DNA of 44,641 nt from a virus (Duplodnaviria; Heunggongvirae; Uroviricota; Caudoviricetes). Of the stretch, positions 35,326 through 43,051 are shown piece after piece (position 1 is the stretch's first letter; each line of letters opens with the position of its first letter). Below the pieces are notes generated by a model, which was given only the letters and a program-made list of their open reading frames with translations, made no database searches and was not told the DNA's origin. Location: positions 64,001-108,641 of the IMG/VR virus record IMGVR_UViG_3300028031_000001; one strand, 5' to 3'. The position numbers and the translations under genes were made by a program.

Positions 35326-35967
35326 ATGAAACCGATGATAATAACATTAACCGGCCCGTCTTGCGCTGGCAAAACTTACTTATTAAATAGTCTTTTAAAA
35401 GAATATCCGAATATATTTGCGAAACTATTAAGTGATACGACTAGAGAAAAACGAATTGATGAGAGTGAGGGTGACGAATATAATTTTATCAGTAAGGAAG
35501 ATTTTATACGTAAAAATATTAACGACGAATACTGTCAAACGGTAAGTTTTAACGGAATTAATTATGGAACTAAAAGGGAGGCGCTTACTTATGCCTTTGA
35601 AACTGGGTTAGTGCCAATAAGAATCGTCGAGCCCACAGGAATTGCGCAGTTCAGAAAAATATCACAAGAGCTAGGATGTATGTATTTTTCTGTATACGTG
35701 GACGAAGAACCTGTAGTTGTTATGTCTAGATGGATCGAACGTTATAGAAATGAAAAAAACCCTAACACAGAATATTACGCCCTTAGAATATTGCAAACTA
35801 TTTTTTCAGAAATAACATGGATAGATCAAGAGGACTACGACTTTTATTACAACGAAAGTATAGTCGACCCTCTCGAATTATCATACGCCTTAAGCAGAAT
35901 AGCCAGCGGCAACATGCCGATAAGTACGTGTAGAAAAATATTTCCTATGCCGGAAAATAATTCTTGA
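35326..35967 (+). CDS. gmk: Guanylate kinase-like nucleotide kinase
   Basis: LTGPSCAGKT, SDTTREKR..E.EG.EYNFIS...F, NYGT. Confidence 0.85.
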   Translation: MKPMIITLTGPSCAGKTYLLNSLLKEYPNIFAKLLSDTTREKRIDESEGDEYNFISKEDFIRKNINDEYCQTVSFNGINYGTKREALTYAFETGLVPIRIVEPTGIAQFRKISQELGCMYFSVYVDEEPVVVMSRWIERYRNEKNPNTEYYALRILQTIFSEITWIDQEDYDFYYNESIVDPLELSYALSRIASGNMPISTCRKIFPMPENNS

Positions 35968-36026: not shown

Positions 36027-37871
36027 ATGGAAGTACCTATAGCAAGAGTAAAAAAAATTAGAGCAATAAGACACTCTATATCTAATACAGTGCGTATGTT
36101 AGCTGGAAGACAATTGCAAGTTAGGCAAGCTGGTTCTAAAGCTTATGTTAGATTGGATGAAACAGGTGTACCAAATTTAATAAATATACCAGTAATTCCA
36201 GACACGGCTTCGGATAAATTATTAAATGGTGTGCAGGGTTATCTGGATCATGAAATTGGTCATGTATTATTTACAGATATAAATGTTTGGAGGTTAAAAG
36301 CTAAAAAAAGCACCCCACAATTAGAAACCTTTTATTGGAATATACTAGAAGACTCTTTCATTGAGAAACGCATGATTGATCGATTCAAAGGATCGTCTTT
36401 TAATTTAAATAATTCCCGAGAATTAATGATTGACCATATAGATGGAATAATTCCAACAATAAAATCTGACAATGGTAGTGAGAAAGAATGGTGGAATCTT
36501 TTTTGCGTTTGCGCCCTAAGAGCTATGTCTGGCGAAAGTATATTTGTATCGTATATGGAAGACAAATGGCATCTAATACCAAATTCGGTAAAGACTTTAG
36601 AAAAATTTAAGTCGGAACTTCTGACTGTAGAAAGCACTAAGGAAGCTTCTAACTTATCTTTAAGAATAGTAGAAGCTTTATTTGGGAAGCAAAATCCGGA
36701 AGACGAAAAATCTCCAGAGAATAACGCTGAAGGGAAGCCATCTGAAGGGAAGCCATCTGAAGACGAATCATCTGAAGACGAATCATCTGAAGACGAATCA
36801 TCTGAAGGGAAGCCATCTGAAGACGAATCATCTGAAGGATTTAAAGTCAACGAAGATGATTTAGGTAATAACCCATTTACCTTGGAGGACTTTGATTCTG
36901 GTCAGGCTACTACACAGCAGAATTTAATGGAAATTATTATATCGAAAATCGCCGTTGATGAATTTAATAGTACAGATTATATACCATTTACAACATCAAA
37001 TGACATAATAGAGCCGGTTAAAATGCCACAAAATATGGCTGGGGTAGATAGGTCATTCGAAATTATAGATTCAAAATCTAAAGAGATGGTAGGTGTTTTA
37101 CAAAAAGGTCTAGAAAGAGCGTTCCTAGCTATGAGTAAAAAACGCTGGGAATCTGGCCGAACATCAGGGAAACTAAATACTTCCGGACTATCAAGGTTAG
37201 TGGTTGGTGATGATAGGGTATTTCGTCAGCGCGTAATAACAAAAAGTAAAGAAGTCGCCGTTTCTCTTTTGATAGATTGCTCCGGATCGATGTCTGGTAG
37301 GGAGATAAGATTAGCAATTATGGCCGCATGGTCTTTATCAGAAGTGATGGATAGGCTTAATATTAGCAGTGAAGTGATTGGATTTACGACCGAATATTTT
37401 CCATATAATGCGACAGAATCATTGAAAAAAGATAATAGGGACGGAGACTTATATAGCAGATTTAGACCATTATATATGCCAATATTTAAAACTTTTATAG
37501 ATAGGTTCGGAATAGTCCAAAAAAAACGTTTAGCTGTATATCACGCTGGATTGGGCCATATGTCCTGTAATATAGACGGAGAATGCTTAAGGATCGCTGC
37601 GGATAGGTTGATGAATAGGCCAGAATCCGGAAAGACTATCATAGTGTTGTCAGACGGATATCCCGCTGGCGATGGAAATTCTCAAAAATTAAGATCGCAC
37701 TTAAAAAGTACCGCCTTGGATATAGAAAGGGAGGGTATTAACGTTGTTGGGATAGGCATAGGAACCGACGCCCCTGCCAGATTTTATAGGAAGCATGTAA
37801 AGTTAGATAATATAGATGATTTGCCTAGTACAGTTTTGAGTAAATTGAGAGAAGCAATATTACAACCATAA
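36027..37871 (+). CDS. CobT-like VWA (MIDAS) protein with an N-terminal HExxH domain and acidic linker
   Basis: DHEIGH...NILED; SGKLN; LLIDCSGSMS; NIDGE; VLSDGYP; VVGIGIG. Confidence 0.88.
   Translation: MEVPIARVKKIRAIRHSISNTVRMLAGRQLQVRQAGSKAYVRLDETGVPNLINIPVIPDTASDKLLNGVQGYLDHEIGHVLFTDINVWRLKAKKSTPQLETFYWNILEDSFIEKRMIDRFKGSSFNLNNSRELMIDHIDGIIPTIKSDNGSEKEWWNLFCVCALRAMSGESIFVSYMEDKWHLIPNSVKTLEKFKSELLTVESTKEASNLSLRIVEALFGKQNPEDEKSPENNAEGKPSEGKPSEDESSEDESSEDESSEGKPSEDESSEGFKVNEDDLGNNPFTLEDFDSGQATTQQNLMEIIISKIAVDEFNSTDYIPFTTSNDIIEPVKMPQNMAGVDRSFEIIDSKSKEMVGVLQKGLERAFLAMSKKRWESGRTSGKLNTSGLSRLVVGDDRVFRQRVITKSKEVAVSLLIDCSGSMSGREIRLAIMAAWSLSEVMDRLNISSEVIGFTTEYFPYNATESLKKDNRDGDLYSRFRPLYMPIFKTFIDRFGIVQKKRLAVYHAGLGHMSCNIDGECLRIAADRLMNRPESGKTIIVLSDGYPAGDGNSQKLRSHLKSTALDIEREGINVVGIGIGTDAPARFYRKHVKLDNIDDLPSTVLSKLREAILQP
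36729..36833 (+). repeat. 15-bp coding VNTR, 7 units of two types (AABBBAB)
   Basis: A=GAAGGGAAGCCATCT (EGKPS), B=GAAGACGAATCATCT (EDESS). Confidence 0.95.
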
Positions 37872-37878
37872 TTAGGAG

Positions 37879-39072
37879 ATGTATATGTCAGATAATAAAA
37901 AGATAGTATGTATGATATGTTCAAAAAATGCCCACTCTATAAAAGTCCACATTAAAGAGGATCATTTTGCAGGTTCTAAACAACCTTATACATTTGAGAA
38001 ATATGTAGAAAAATATCCAGAAGCTCCTTTATTGACTTCTGCCGCCGTTGAATATATGAAAAAAATGAGAGCTGAAAGAGTGAAATCTCCGAAACCAACT
38101 ATATTTAAATACAATTTAGACGAAAATAAAAAGCCTATGGCGGAATTGTTTGGATTAAGCGATGCTAATGGGAAAAATATATCTGGAAAAGATATTATGA
38201 TTGGAGTTTCTGACGAAATTAAATTTCCAGAATATGTTCCGCAAATAGATTCTTCATATGTATACCCAGTGACCACGCTAAAAACGGTTTTAATGGCGTT
38301 AAGTCAAAATATTCCCGTATATATATATGGCCATGCAGGTGTGGGAAAAACATCTTTATTTGAACAAATTTGTGCTAGAACTAACAACCGTATGATACGA
38401 ATACAACATACAGCCAATATAGAAGAGTCGCATATTATCGGCCAATGGACTGTGGAAAAATTTAAGGACGAAGAAAGCGGCCAGCTAATATCTGAAACAG
38501 TTTTTAAACTCGGCCCCCTAGCCGTAGCTATGAAGTATGGATTTTACTATTTGGCAGATGAATTTGATCGCGGACATCCGACGGTTATGTCAATTTATAA
38601 TGCGGTGCTGGAAGGTAAGCCTTTAATAATTCCCGAGGCTGATGAAGATAATAGGGTTATAACACCTCATAAAAATTTTAGGTTCGTGGCAAATGGAAAT
38701 AGCAACGGCTCTGGGGATGAGACCGGCCTTTACCAAGCCACTATCATGCAAGACGCCGCCAGCATAGAAAGGTTTGGAGTGTGCTTGAAACTGAATTATA
38801 TGAGTCCAGCCAAAGAGCTGAAAATGATTATAGACAAGACTGGGTTGCCATCCGAAGACGCGGAAAGGGTTGTCAGTTTTTGCACTAAAATTAGAGAGTC
38901 TTACCCATCTTCAGTATCTTTAACTATTGGCCCTAGAGTAGCAATTACTGCCGCCGTAATTGGGCTATTAAGTGGAAATATAAAACGTGGTATAGAATGC
39001 GCCTACGCTAATAGATTACCAGAATCTGAAAGGGAGTCTGCGCTAGCAATATCTCAAAGGATTTTTGGATAA
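37879..39072 (+). CDS. CobS-like MoxR AAA+ ATPase with an N-terminal C2H2-like Zn finger
   Basis: CMIC...H....H; GHAGVGKT; LADEFD; FRFVANGN; ERF. Confidence 0.9.
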   Translation: MYMSDNKKIVCMICSKNAHSIKVHIKEDHFAGSKQPYTFEKYVEKYPEAPLLTSAAVEYMKKMRAERVKSPKPTIFKYNLDENKKPMAELFGLSDANGKNISGKDIMIGVSDEIKFPEYVPQIDSSYVYPVTTLKTVLMALSQNIPVYIYGHAGVGKTSLFEQICARTNNRMIRIQHTANIEESHIIGQWTVEKFKDEESGQLISETVFKLGPLAVAMKYGFYYLADEFDRGHPTVMSIYNAVLEGKPLIIPEADEDNRVITPHKNFRFVANGNSNGSGDETGLYQATIMQDAASIERFGVCLKLNYMSPAKELKMIIDKTGLPSEDAERVVSFCTKIRESYPSSVSLTIGPRVAITAAVIGLLSGNIKRGIECAYANRLPESERESALAISQRIFG

Positions 39073-39639
39073 GTGGGTGACTTAAAACCACCATGCTATG
39101 GTATATCGATATGTTTCAATAGGGAGTCTAAAACCTGCAAGACCTGCTCATTTGAAAATCAGTGTTTTGCGGATAGTAAGGAAGAGGCTATATCTCTATC
39201 GAAAGACTATATTATGGATGACTGGTTAGTTAGGTTTGATTGTAAGTCCGATAACTTAACCACCAATAAAGTTAGAAATGCAGCCGTAGAGCCTGTATAT
39301 TGGGTCTTAACTAAAGAATTGCAAGAAGTTGTCAACTGTATGCCGGATAGGCCAGCTAAGATAGCAAAGTCTATTGTCAGGTGTGGTATAGATATTAAAG
39401 GTAAGATGGCTTTAGGCATCAACCCAATAAAAAGAAGAAAGTACAAGTACCTTAAGGACGCTTGTGACTTTTTGTTGGACGATGGCTACTCATATCAAGG
39501 CTTGACTCAATACTATATGGACAAATATAAGTGTGGAGTTTCAACTGCTCGAAATTATACTTGGCTTTCTACTGAAATTCTGTTAGGGTTACAGGTAATT
39601 GAGTGGTATGATAGCAGACTCATCCTGAGAGGCGAATAA
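39073..39639 (+). CDS. Hypothetical protein with an N-terminal Cys cluster
   Basis: C-x5-C-x7-C-x2-C-x5-C; abuts both neighbours. Confidence 0.7.
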   Translation: MGDLKPPCYGISICFNRESKTCKTCSFENQCFADSKEEAISLSKDYIMDDWLVRFDCKSDNLTTNKVRNAAVEPVYWVLTKELQEVVNCMPDRPAKIAKSIVRCGIDIKGKMALGINPIKRRKYKYLKDACDFLLDDGYSYQGLTQYYMDKYKCGVSTARNYTWLSTEILLGLQVIEWYDSRLILRGE

Positions 39640-39640
39640 T

Positions 39641-42600
39641 ATGACGTGTATGATAGGAGCGAAAACAGATTTCTCTCTAAAAGAGAGTGTGCTGAGTGCT
39701 AAGTATTTAGTAAATAAAGCTAAAGAGCTTGGGTACGATGCTATAGCTATCGCCGACACATCCTCTATCAACGCACTGACAAAGATATTCGCTGAAGCAA
39801 AGAAGGCTGACATAAAAGCGATCATCGGTGTTACGTTCACAGTCACTGACGACATCCATTACCGCGATGCAAAGCGTGGCACCCCCAAGACTAAGAAGCC
39901 TAGATTCCACAGACCAGTTCTGTACGCAAGAGATCAACACGGCCTAAGCGTGATAATGAATCTTGTAACTCTATCCAATGATGCGAATCACTTCTATTAT
40001 AACACGCAGATAAATCTAGAAGAACTACTATCCGCCATCAAAGAGGGTGGAGTTGTGTATTCGACTGGCGAAGCTTACTCGACGTTTACACATCCAGAAT
40101 ATATAGAAATTTTGCATTTGGTGGATTCTGCCTGTATAACATCTACACTCCAGTCTGCCACACCAAACGAATCTTTAATGTTCGGAGCGGTAGTCCCTGT
40201 AGATACCCCATACTACGATATGATTACACAGCGAGCAATATCTTGGATAAAATTTGACGCAACCCGTAATTTAATTATTTCAAAGCCGGTACTTCACAAG
40301 AAAGGTAAGGCCGATGTCCGTAATACTATGGACTGTATTCTTAACCGCAACAAGGTTGACAGTCCGTGGCGCAATGAGCCAGCGGAATTTCATCCAGAAC
40401 AACCTGCTATAATCGTGATGATGGTAGGGTTCCAACAAGCCAGAATTTCAGCCAACAGCACAGGCGATTTATCCGATATATTATTCGATGGTATTAAAGT
40501 TTTCGAAGATTCGTTCACATACGAATTCAAGAAGATGCCTATCTCCCTACCTGAGATATCCACTACGCCAAAAGAAACTCTGCTGAAGTTGTCTATCGAA
40601 GGATGGAAGAATCGAATTGCTAAAACTGTGTTGGGCTACAAGCCGGACGCATCCGAATTGCCGAAGTACAAAGAGCGCCTGAAGTACGAACTAAAAACCC
40701 TAAACGACATGGGCTTTGAGAATTACTTCCTGTTGGTTGAGAAGCTGACTACATGGTGTGCCGAAGAAGGAATTTTTGTTGGCCCCGGACGAGGCTCTGT
40801 CGGTGGTTCACTAGTAGCCTACCTGCTTGGAATAACAGACGTCGACCCTATCCGCTTTGGATTGATATTCGAGCGATTCATTAACCCCTCACGATTGGAC
40901 TTGCCAGATATCGATTTGGATTTCATGTCCTCTCGCCGTCATGAAGTGGTCACTTATTTAAGGGATCAATTTGGAGAGGATAACGTGGCTGGTATATCTA
41001 ACTACGGAGTTATGGGGCCATCATCTTCACTGAGAGCTGTGGGTTCTGCTCACAACTTAACGCAGGACGAAATCTCCTGCTCCAAGATGGTTCCGAAAGA
41101 GCATGGCATACCAATGAAGTTGGAAGCTTGCGTGGCAGAGGTTCCAGAGCTGGAGAGATTCGCAATTGACCATCCAAGCATCTGGGAAGAGGCTGTCGAG
41201 TTGCAGGGAGTGTTCAAAAATTACGGCACGCACGCCGCAGGTATAGTTGTGTCTGGAGTACCAATCAAAGAGAGAGCGGTTGTAGAGAGACGCAAAGATA
41301 AAGTCTGGTCTATCAATTGGGACAAGCGTGTGGTGGAAGACTTCGGTCTAGTTAAGTTGGACGTACTAGGTCTACAGACTCTGGACATCCTAGCAAAAGC
41401 TAATGAATATCTAATTGATGACGGCAAAGAGTCAATCAATTATAAATCTATAGAACTGACAGATGGAAAGGTGTTAGCTGGATTTGCCAAGGCCGAAACT
41501 AAAGGTGTATTTCAGTTTGAAGGTGGTGGTATGAGACACCTTCTTAAGGAACTGGCTGACGGTGACAAAATATCTTTCGAGGATATTACAGCAGCAACGG
41601 CACTGTTTCGTCCCGGCCCAATCGATGCTGGATTGATGGATGACTACGTACAGATTAAGCAGGGTGCTTCGTATCCTAACTACCTGCATCCAGCTATGGA
41701 ACCAGCACTGAAAGAAACTCAATCGGTGATTGTGTATCAGGAACAAGTGATGCAGATCGCTCGTGACTTGGCCGGATTCTCATTCGCGGAAGCTGACGTA
41801 CTTAGAAAAGCTATGGGCAAGAAAGACCATGACTTAATGGCACAGCAACGTAGCAAGTGGGTTGATGGATGCTTAACAACTCATAACATGGATATTATAA
41901 CTTCAGGTGGTCTGTTCGATCAGGTTGAGAAGTTTGCTGGCTACGGCTTTAACAAGTCTCACTCAGTCGAGTACACAATTATATCGTACTGGTCTATGTA
42001 CGTGAAAACGTATCACCCTGCCGTATTTTACGCGGCGGCGTTGTCAGTCTTGGACGAACCGAAGCTGATGGGTCTGGTGAAAGAGGCAGAGACTAAAGAT
42101 ATATTCGTTCGATCACCCGATATAAATAAGTCTTCAGACCGATATGAGGTTGTTAAAGAATTGGATGGTGGTATATCTTTGTACGCTCCATTCCAAGCTG
42201 TGAAAGGAATCAGTGAAAAAGGTGCGGCGGCGATCTTGGAAGCACAGTTGAACACTGGGGCGGGCATGGGTTTGTTCACAAGCAAGGCCAACTTCCTAGC
42301 CAGAGTAAACAAAAGATTCGCAAATATCAGAGTACAGTCTGCACTGGATAAGATTGGGGCGTTTGCTTCAATAGAATCTGACCAGCTACCAGCCTCTGAC
42401 ATCAGCAGGTTGAGAGATCAAAAGGAACTATTACCGGGGATTGTTACTAGAAATGTTATGACAGACCGGTCTATAATGAAGGATAAGGAATCTCTAGCGT
42501 CCCTACGTGAGGTTTTGCAAGAAGTTCAGGGCTGTTCTGCCTGTAGTTTGCAGGGAGAATGCCACCCCAAGCCAAAAATGGGTAAGACTGCGAAGATAAT

Positions 42601-43051
42601 GATCGTCACGGACTGCCCCAACTGGGGTGAAGAGAAGATGATGGGCACTGGAGAGGGCTGTACAGCCTTACGAGAGGCTTTAAAGGTTGCAGACATACCG
42701 ATGGCAGACGTATACCTAACATCGCTTGTGAAGGCTCTCAAGGGCTCTGGACAGACGCTACAGAACGAGTCAATCATAGGTTGTTCTGGGTTTCTAGATC
42801 GAGAGATAGAGATATTGAAGCCGCCAGTGATTGTTGTGCTGGGATCGGCAGCATTCAGGCACCTATACCCAGAAGCCAAAGGTGGGTGGGAAGAATTAAA
42901 TGGGCAGGTTCAGTATATTTCAGAGACAGATATGACATTGGTATGCGGATTGAATCCTTTGATGGTTCACTTTGATAAAACCAAGCAGATACACTTAAAC
43001 GACGCACTAATTACAGCGAAGAGTTTATTTAAGCTACCTACCAACCTCTAA
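39641..43051 (+). CDS. dnaE: DNA polymerase III alpha (DnaE, family C) fused to a C-terminal family-4 UDG-like domain
   Basis: GPGRGSVGGSL..YLLGIT..DP...L.FERF.NP.R.DLPDIDLDF, HAAG, KLDVLG, YQEQVM, FAGYGFNKSH; ends CSACSL...EIEILKPPVIVVLGSAA. Confidence 0.95.
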   Translation: MTCMIGAKTDFSLKESVLSAKYLVNKAKELGYDAIAIADTSSINALTKIFAEAKKADIKAIIGVTFTVTDDIHYRDAKRGTPKTKKPRFHRPVLYARDQHGLSVIMNLVTLSNDANHFYYNTQINLEELLSAIKEGGVVYSTGEAYSTFTHPEYIEILHLVDSACITSTLQSATPNESLMFGAVVPVDTPYYDMITQRAISWIKFDATRNLIISKPVLHKKGKADVRNTMDCILNRNKVDSPWRNEPAEFHPEQPAIIVMMVGFQQARISANSTGDLSDILFDGIKVFEDSFTYEFKKMPISLPEISTTPKETLLKLSIEGWKNRIAKTVLGYKPDASELPKYKERLKYELKTLNDMGFENYFLLVEKLTTWCAEEGIFVGPGRGSVGGSLVAYLLGITDVDPIRFGLIFERFINPSRLDLPDIDLDFMSSRRHEVVTYLRDQFGEDNVAGISNYGVMGPSSSLRAVGSAHNLTQDEISCSKMVPKEHGIPMKLEACVAEVPELERFAIDHPSIWEEAVELQGVFKNYGTHAAGIVVSGVPIKERAVVERRKDKVWSINWDKRVVEDFGLVKLDVLGLQTLDILAKANEYLIDDGKESINYKSIELTDGKVLAGFAKAETKGVFQFEGGGMRHLLKELADGDKISFEDITAATALFRPGPIDAGLMDDYVQIKQGASYPNYLHPAMEPALKETQSVIVYQEQVMQIARDLAGFSFAEADVLRKAMGKKDHDLMAQQRSKWVDGCLTTHNMDIITSGGLFDQVEKFAGYGFNKSHSVEYTIISYWSMYVKTYHPAVFYAAALSVLDEPKLMGLVKEAETKDIFVRSPDINKSSDRYEVVKELDGGISLYAPFQAVKGISEKGAAAILEAQLNTGAGMGLFTSKANFLARVNKRFANIRVQSALDKIGAFASIESDQLPASDISRLRDQKELLPGIVTRNVMTDRSIMKDKESLASLREVLQEVQGCSACSLQGECHPKPKMGKTAKIMIVTDCPNWGEEKMMGTGEGCTALREALKVADIPMADVYLTSLVKALKGSGQTLQNESIIGCSGFLDREIEILKPPVIVVLGSAAFRHLYPEAKGGWEELNGQVQYISETDMTLVCGLNPLMVHFDKTKQIHLNDALITAKSLFKLPTNL

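Follow-up and report, generated by a model that had tools for sequence, protein, structure and literature searches.

An uncultured virus of ~109 kb encodes a C-family DNA polymerase whose C-terminal tail is folded like the uracil-DNA glycosylases (UDGs) of family 4 in the place where DnaE proteins carry their OB and tau-binding domains. The gene, referred to here as dnaE-UDG, lies within the window analysed here, the final 44.6 kb (44,641 nucleotides) of a complete viral record of 108,641 bp that has direct terminal repeats (IMGVR_UViG_3300028031_000001); coordinates refer to this window unless stated otherwise. Alignment of the tail with its relatives indicates that it has been remodelled under strong purifying selection, without decay, and the identities of its residues make it most likely that both recognition and excision of uracil have been lost. 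We lean towards a tail that works without catalysis, as a structural or DNA-contact module which would help to keep the polymerase on its substrate, and weigh this below against readings in which the altered pocket is still at work or in which the tail is chiefly a docking surface for other proteins.

A DnaE polymerase with a UDG-fold tail

The gene and the domains of its product are as follows.

39641..43051, + strand: dnaE-UDG gene, an uninterrupted open reading frame of 1136 codons
39662..40072, + strand: PHP domain, residues 8-144 (Pfam PF02811)
40580..41371, + strand: Pol III alpha palm/thumb core, residues 314-577 (Pfam DNA_pol3_alpha PF07733, 2.1e-70)
40904-40921, + strand: PDIDLD catalytic Asp motif, residues 422-427
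41354-41371, + strand: KLDVLG catalytic Asp motif, residues 572-577
41378..41875, + strand: fingers domain, residues 580-745 (Pfam PF17657, 1.5e-49)
42101..42382, + strand: (HhH)2 / beta-binding-domain region, residues 821-914 (Pfam HHH_6 PF14579, 2.3e-11)
42503..43030, + strand: family-4-UDG-fold domain where OB and tau-binding domains would be expected, residues 955-1130 (Pfam, structure-library profile search and AlphaFold2)

With a PHP domain, a palm containing the catalytic aspartates, fingers and an (HhH)2 region all present, the protein is a C-family polymerase of the DnaE type. The catalytic Asp columns of both PDIDLD and KLDVLG are invariant in an alignment of 112 family members (full-length proteins and C-terminal pieces), to which 11 canonical free-standing UDGs were added and on which all of the residue counts given below are based. 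The (HhH)2 region aligns by profile to residues 888-946 of the Taq enzyme and 836-895 of that of E. coli, and in an AlphaFold2 model of the full-length protein (pLDDT 92.6, pTM 0.87) the core resembles E. coli and Taq Pol III alpha (2hnh, 2hpi) and the tail resembles family-4 UDGs, with the linker at residues 915-954 also modelled at a pLDDT of ~90. Between the HhH region and the UDG fold there are only 40 residues, and a Pfam search of the 1136-residue protein at E <= 1 gave no match to an OB domain or a tau-binding C-terminal domain (CTD). The protein lacks the C-terminal OB and tau-binding CTD that define DnaE1, the E. coli-like replicase.

The open reading frame is preceded by a GAGAGG ribosome-binding site ~8 nt 5' of the ATG at 39641. 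The public gene call (P0002) is 1133 residues long, three short of the reading frame, and fits the second in-frame ATG (39650), although the ATG at 39641 is better spaced from the ribosome-binding site.

Several lines of evidence place the tail in the UDG superfamily. Pfam UDG (PF03167) matches residues 984-1084 with 34.2 bits in the whole protein and 37.8 bits in the tail alone, against a gathering cut-off of 24.3 bits. Compared with solved structures, the tail by itself finds the family-4 UDGs 4zbx (3.8e-10) and 1ui0 (4.6e-09), and a profile of the 112 family sequences reaches an E value of 1.6e-23 against family-4 structures. An AlphaFold2 model of residues 915-1136 (pLDDT 94.4, pTM 0.90) has family-4 UDGs and UdgX as its top Foldseek matches (E ~1e-12, target TM 0.81-0.86), with TDG/MUG far behind at E ~1e-5. 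The assignment is well past chance: the tail scores above the PF03167 gathering threshold and is predicted to adopt the alpha/beta UDG fold that marks members of the superfamily. An OB fold, or any other fold, was considered for this region and is ruled out by the Pfam and Foldseek results. The domain had been proposed in an earlier reading made from the sequence alone (the sequence-only reading), which suggested domain profiles and AlphaFold as checks; both bear it out, and the motifs that it quoted (PDIDLD, KLDVLG, QKELL, CSAC, TDCPN, YLTSLVKALK, GC and GLNPL) are all found where it placed them.

Membership of a known functional class is another matter. The tail falls far short of the curated family-4 models, with 42.5 bits for TIGR00758 (cut-off 125.3) and 49.7 for NF040953 (cut-off 250), and of the UdgX model TIGR03914 (37.2 bits; cut-off 189.95). 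The UdgX R-loop, KRRIH with its cross-linking His, is not present in the tail, which has a gap there when aligned to UdgX chains; with TDCPN also standing in place of GEQPG, the tail is by sequence not a UdgX. No second, canonical UDG was found in the phage genome.

The uracil pocket is remodelled across the family

In family-4 UDGs and UdgX, the Glu of motif A (E52, within GE(A/G)PG) activates the attacking water, N91 and the His of motif B (H178) hydrogen-bond uracil and pull on the leaving group, and R184 of motif B holds the DNA (PMC10359453). The corresponding segments of the tail are listed here, followed by the individual positions and their composition among the 112 family members.

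42608..42622, + strand: TDCPN, residues 990-994, equivalent of motif A (canonical GE(A/G)PG); acid kept as D991, P993 kept, both Gly lost
42713..42742, + strand: YLTSLVKALK, residues 1025-1034 (canonical (Y/F)xTNxVKCRP); S1028, A1032, K1034
42947..42973, + strand: GLNPLMVHF (GLNPL at residues 1103-1107), equivalent of motif B (canonical xHP(S/A)xxxR); N1105 for His, F1111 for Arg

Motif-A acid (E52): D991; Asp in 104/112 (93%)
Motif-A Pro: P993; Pro in 101/112
Stacking Phe: G1002; variable, with Gly 30, Met 22, Leu 16, Thr 10
Uracil-contact Asn (N91): S1028; Ser 60, Ala 19, Thr 17, Gly 14
Motif-B His (H178): N1105; Asn 83, Ser 17, Thr 9, His 1 (N/S/T in 109/112)
Motif-B Pro: P1106; Pro in 107/112
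DNA-loop Arg (R184): F1111; Phe 77, His 12, Tyr 9

The sequence-only reading had noted that the canonical motifs GE(A/G)PG, PFVG, KCRP and HP(S/A) are altered in this protein, and they indeed read TDCPN, MGTG, KALK and NPL; it had counted PFVG as absent. By alignment, then, the tail departs from family-4 UDGs at motif A, at the uracil-contact Asn and at the motif-B His. The scaffold around these positions is retained, with Y1025 in 111, T1027 in 110 and K1031 in 108 of the relatives and E1055 and G1068 in every one; another 18 columns of the tail show conservation of 90% or more. There are also gains specific to the family: K1034 (103/112), K1080 (98/112), G1081 (96/112), D1097 (99/112) and Y1092.

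This is not the picture that the word 'degenerate', used in the sequence-only reading, would suggest, in that the substitutions at D991 and N1105 are themselves shared and conserved alongside the invariant E1055 and G1068. A tree of the polymerase core shows just two changes of the acid at position 991, compared with 12 changes for N1105. Mean pairwise identity is 38.8% in the tail, 54.7% in the palm and 28.7% in the PHP region (residues 1-300), the PHP domain being the least conserved part of the protein. Since the same conserved substitutions occur family-wide and the tail is more conserved than PHP, we read the pattern as remodelling and not decay. It is a pattern in which exactly the uracil-handling residues have been exchanged and the motif-A acid has been kept, evidently under selection.

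A putative metal site

Two segments of the tail correspond to the iron-sulfur (Fe-S) ligands of family-4 UDGs.

42533..42565, + strand: CSACSLQGECH, residues 965-975 (CSAC at 965-968); the two N-terminal Fe-S Cys of family-4 UDGs and a family-specific H975
42779..42784, + strand: G1047-C1048, the fourth canonical Fe-S Cys, kept in 74/112 relatives

The tail contains seven cysteines (965, 968, 974, 992, 1007, 1048 and 1102), where the sequence-only reading had counted four and had taken C974 ('GEC') as one of the candidate ligands; C974 occurs in just 11 of the 112 relatives and the adjacent H975 in 78. Canonically, the Cys of KCRP is the third ligand; the residue at this position is A1032 in this protein and is Ala, Ser, Arg or Thr, never Cys, across the family, and the four-Cys [4Fe-4S] ligand set of family-4 UDGs is accordingly incomplete as judged by alignment. 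C965, C968 and C1048 are found together in 72 relatives. H975, seven residues past the CxxC, accompanies the triad in 70 of these 72, whereas just 8 of the 40 sequences without the triad have it, although such raw counts may partly reflect relatedness; with phylogeny controlled for, there are only three independent pairs on supported branches, of which two are concordant and none discordant, too few to give the comparison statistical power. That the UDG fold can sustain a Cys3His Fe-S cluster is known from UdgX, in which the His takes the position of the third Cys (PMC4787834). Because H975 travels with the three Cys, and with UdgX as a Cys3His precedent, the alignment suggests a putative metal site in which Cys965, Cys968, Cys1048 and His975 would be the ligands, the fourth having been relocated. 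The metal at such a site, if kept, would probably be Fe-S, and in this particular protein C974 may be an alternative ligand to H975.

A conserved linker motif

The short connection between the HhH region and the tail contains a segment that is nearly invariant in the family alignment.

42407..42439, + strand: linker RLRDQKELLPG, residues 923-933
from 42419, + strand: QKELL, residues 927-931

Among the relatives R923 is conserved in 95/112, Q927 in 101/112, L930 in 92/112, P932 in 96/112 and G933 in 91/112. In sequence QKELL is similar to QADMF, with which E. coli alpha binds the clamp internally (residues 920-924; PMC3201878), functional motifs of this kind being QL[SD]LF-like. The two are at broadly comparable distances from the HhH region: QADMF lies ~31 residues past the point equivalent to the HhH GAF landmark, and QKELL lies ~19 residues past that landmark; the equivalent of QKELL in the Salmonella phage SSU5 is QAELM. 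A profile of residues 845-962 aligns to DnaE structures in the PDB only through GAFAS/IEPGQ and stops before the linker motif, and a weak, non-significant phmmer alignment pairs the linker with LRYEKEALG, residues 999-1007 in the Taq enzyme, a segment downstream of the HhH region. Residues 921-930 are predicted as an ordered helix (pLDDT ~85-91), in the model of the isolated tail as well, which counts against a free clamp-binding peptide. RLRDQKELLPG may be a motif that binds the beta clamp internally, or else a neck helix with a structural role.

Genome context

Genes for a DnaB-type helicase, a primase and a single-stranded DNA-binding protein (SSB) are found near dnaE-UDG, and those immediately upstream are:

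35326-35967, + strand: guanylate-kinase-like gene (PHROG 1815), between the primase and the CobT-like gene
36027-39072, + strand: CobT-like (VWA) and CobS/MoxR-like (AAA_5) gene pair, just upstream of dnaE
39073..39639, + strand: 188-aa gene whose product has a Cys-rich motif at its N-terminus (PCYG...CxxC...C); a single base separates its stop codon from the dnaE ATG

A DnaQ-like exonuclease of the RNase_T family is encoded apart from dnaE in the same genome, outside the window (G000:C1:15620-16108), and is probably the proofreader for this DnaE. Neither a beta clamp (DnaN) nor clamp-loader families were detected in the complete 108,641-bp genome.

The 188-aa protein has no Pfam or NCBIfam match. 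In Pseudomonas phage hairong a homologue (24% identity, 3e-13) occupies the equivalent position, and in Rhizobium phage RHEph10 one (gp046, 2e-5) is encoded two genes upstream of dnaE; SSU5 has only a 67-aa gene at the position upstream of dnaE. The 188-aa protein may be a replication accessory or regulatory protein. As a separate observation, hairong, SSU5 and RHEph10 also have the CobT/CobS-like pair ahead of their dnaE-UDG genes, under the annotation cobaltochelatase or 'porphyrin biosynthesis'; the partnership of this pair with the replication module is conserved but unexplained.

The phage encodes a thymidylate synthase that matches ThyA at equivalog level (366 bits; cut-off 327), and its relative hairong has ThyA, DHFR and RNR. 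There is no sign of uracil-containing or hypermodified DNA in the phage, and because a true ThyA is encoded we take it to have ordinary thymine DNA. These genes speak against the suggestion, made from the sequence alone, that the tail might be a reader of modified bases.

What the tail may do

In the reading that we prefer, the gene product is the phage's own C-family replicative polymerase, and the tail would be a permanent C-terminal module of this replicase standing in for the missing OB/tau-binding tail. Without catalysis of its own, the module would probably touch DNA close to the clamp-binding region, with a partner protein as a possible further contact, and would in this way help to hold the polymerase on its substrate. 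That the tail is an integral working part of the replicase is indicated by its strong conservation together with the confident and compact full-length model. As for the DNA-contact or processivity role, we infer it, and it is of the same kind as that proposed for the inactive UDG domain of N4-like PolA and for the UDG-like N-terminal regions found in SPO1 and T5 polymerases. The sequence-only reading had likewise named a processivity module, and also a template-base sensor, as candidate roles; the first of these had already been put forward for PolA-UDG fusions (PMC3201878; PMC10201439).

A number of points weigh against this preference, which we regard as only a little more probable than not. 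D991 is near-invariant and motif B keeps a polar N/S/T-Pro, neither of which is obviously needed for a structural role. The loss of catalysis is read from residue identities only, and MUG/TDG-type enzymes are active without the motif-B His. Finally, the tail has an isoelectric point (pI) of 5.6, with a family median of 6.4, compared with a pI above 8.5 in 9 of 12 free-standing UDGs; the loss of basic charge weakens a generic DNA-binding role and fits protein docking equally well.

The first of these points would fit a remodelled pocket that still works, either as a glycosylase or as a tight-binding sensor with a new specificity, for a non-uracil base or an abasic site on nascent or template DNA moving past the polymerase. 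We consider this unlikely, albeit far from negligible. The equivalent of the water-activating Glu has, as seen above, been kept with two changes on the tree, motif B retains G-x-(N/S/T)-P, members of family 2 of the UDG superfamily show that activity can survive without the motif-B His (motifs: PMC10359453), and the trio of E-to-D, N-to-S and H-to-N exchanges recurs in an unrelated UDG-PolA fusion (P0167, see below). However, the equivalents of N91 and H178, the stacking Phe and the DNA-loop Arg have all gone together, and position 1028 is unfixed (S/A/T/G), which would be odd for a determinant of specificity. The scores lie far under the cut-offs for both family 4 and UdgX, there is no UdgX R-loop, and the phage has a true ThyA and shows no sign of unusual bases.

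The charge of the tail bears on a different possibility, namely that it serves chiefly as a hub for docking other proteins, in place of the tau-binding CTD, with the helicase, SSB, a host clamp, a second polymerase or the upstream 188-aa protein as its partner. This we hold to be a minority prospect. Its attractions are that the tail is near-neutral to acidic, unlike free UDGs; that it has gained surface-type residues absent from canonical UDGs (K1034, K1080-G1081, D1097, Y1092, F1111 and the R923-G933 linker); that no clamp loader or tau was detected that could couple polymerase and helicase; and that a small gene next to dnaE is conserved in distant relatives. The partners named are nevertheless candidates, and in SSU5 the upstream position is occupied by just the 67-aa gene. 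The gained residues may equally form an interface with the polymerase core, as the compactness of the full-length model (pTM 0.87) would allow.

A more specific proposal joins the metal site to the pocket: the tail would carry a Cys3-His iron-sulfur (or zinc) site via H975 together with a re-specified pocket, formed by D991, a small residue at 1028, N1105 and F1111, that binds or cuts a non-uracil target. This conjunction seems to us rather improbable, although if true it would make the protein a C-family replicase with a built-in sensor of lesions or of DNA state. Loose analogues of such a sensor are the C-terminal domains with Fe-S that eukaryotic B-family replicases carry and the pocket with which archaeal polymerases read ahead for uracil.

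The two remaining readings fare poorly. A normal, active family-4 UDG that removes misincorporated dUMP behind the fork could point to the fold, to the two or three Fe-S Cys and to the acidic residue of motif A, but we give it very little credence: both residues that pull on uracil, the stacking Phe and the loop Arg are lost together family-wide, which makes ordinary uracil excision very unlikely, the third cluster Cys is also replaced, and the TIGR00758 score is about a third of its cut-off. That the tail is a vestigial remnant without function, as the lost catalytic motifs alone might imply, is scarcely credible for a domain with a confident fold and invariant columns that is conserved in more than 80 clusters at 50% identity and better conserved than PHP.

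Whichever of these applies, a replicase with no detectable phage clamp, clamp loader, OB domain or tau-binding domain is a tractable system in which to study processivity and coupling of C-family polymerases. The DnaE-UDG arrangement is widespread, being found among the Nickievirus, Rhizobium, Stenotrophomonas and SSU5-like phages, and cultured relatives exist.

Distribution and comparison with known systems

The fusion itself is not new. Polymerases with the order PHP-Pol3-(HhH)2-UDG ('DnaEX') were described in Yersinia pestis and Salmonella enterica by Timinskas et al. (NAR 2014, PMC3919608), as an extra polymerase in certain strains of these species; that paper gives the UDG variant one sentence and a figure, without residue-level or functional analysis. 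PHROG 405 ('DNA polymerase') covers residues 7-1128 in a single stretch, the GenBank note of RHEph10 gp048 includes 'uracil-DNA glycosylase-like', and all 47 of 47 close metagenomic homologues have precomputed PF03167 and DnaE domains. By its domain order, the phage polymerase is a 'DnaEX' PHP-Pol3-(HhH)2-UDG variant, and it adds a member to an architecture already published and annotated. The sequence-only reading had stated that its case would fall if the fusion were the annotated norm and had normal UDG activity; of this, the first half describes what we find. What is new is the family-wide, residue-level pattern of the tail and the possible relocated metal ligand.

An exhaustive search returned 108 representatives at E <= 1e-10, the fusion is retained in 83 full-length cluster representatives (metagenomic clusters at 50% identity), and the DnaE-UDG layout is common in phages of ~110 kb. 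Using the tail as a tblastn query, we found 31 phage records at >=80% tail coverage, which include the Pseudomonas phages hairong, ZY21, phiK7B1, nickie and Nican01, the Rhizobium RHEph10 group, Stenotrophomonas phages ANB28 and BUCTxx99, Xanthomonas phage JGB6, and SSU5-like phages of Salmonella, E. coli and Klebsiella. Where a record is annotated, its label is 'DNA polymerase III alpha' or simply 'DNA polymerase', with the exception of JGB6, which has 'AAA family ATPase'. Free-standing copies of the remodelled domain were also considered, but the short matches (e.g. P0078 and P0057) look like fragments of the fusion or calls from an internal Met.

In some relatives the dnaE gene is interrupted just past the fingers (~residue 745 here) by a free-standing HNH/NUMOD/HTH endonuclease gene. 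Proteins of ~390 aa with HHH_6 and UDG domains (PHROG 4335; metagenome relative L007 1-2572) are the C-terminal pieces of such split genes, in which the UDG-like tail goes with the HhH piece.

The closest cultured relatives are the Nickievirus phages (hairong, nickie and ZY21) and the RHEph10 group, which share with this phage the order helicase, primase, CobT/CobS-like pair, small gene and dnaE-UDG. The polymerase of hairong is 47.7% identical over its full length, and at less than 50% identity to the DnaE proteins of Nickievirus and RHEph10 this phage represents a different genus-level lineage. The SSU5 polymerase has an identical order of domains, with a PF03167 domain for the OB domain and CTD, and a tail that is 31% identical (5e-28) and shows the same pattern of Asp, small residue and Asn-Pro, but it lacks the CxxC...H...C set that this phage and about two-thirds of the family possess.

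Compared with free-standing enzymes, the tail has its fold in common with the family-4 UDGs of Thermus (UDGA, 1ui0), Thermotoga (1l9g/1vk2) and Sulfolobus (4zbx) and with UdgX (6ail/6ajo), all at a TM of 0.81-0.86. It has kept from family-4 UDGs the N-terminal CxxC, the last cluster Cys, the Y-x-T-x-x-x-K strand, the L-x-x-E-I-x-x-x-x-P helix and the LG loop, and differs from them in being acidic and fused to a polymerase whereas the free enzymes are basic. It resembles UdgX in having K-x-x-K for K-C-R-P, although the third Cys is replaced by Ala in the tail and by His in UdgX, and the tail is also without the R-loop.

UDG domains are likewise joined to family-A polymerases. UDG-PolA fusions with the UDG at the N-terminus include N4-like proteins, whose catalytic residues are not conserved, SPO1-like proteins and others (PMC10201439; Kazlauskas and Venclovas 2011, PMC3201878), and a processivity role has been proposed for PolA-UDG fusions and, in the SPO1 and T5 polymerases, for N-termini that are UDG-like (PMC3201878; PMC10201439). 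In one metagenomic protein of 1087 aa, the intein-containing UDG-PolA fusion P0167, the UDG domain shows the same trio of changes, Glu to Asp in motif A, Asn to Ser, and His to Asn in motif B, with the KCRP Cys kept; this single example may represent parallel remodelling in an unrelated polymerase family. The N4-like and SPO1-like fusions share with dnaE-UDG a family-4 UDG fold joined to a phage replicative polymerase, as well as the loss of catalytic residues in one large clade, and differ from it in that the polymerase belongs to family A and not family C and that the UDG is at the opposite end of the protein. According to Czernecki et al. (NAR 2023, PMC10201439), the N4-like domain is missing one short helix as well as a beta-hairpin, whereas in the DnaE tail the whole fold is confidently modelled.

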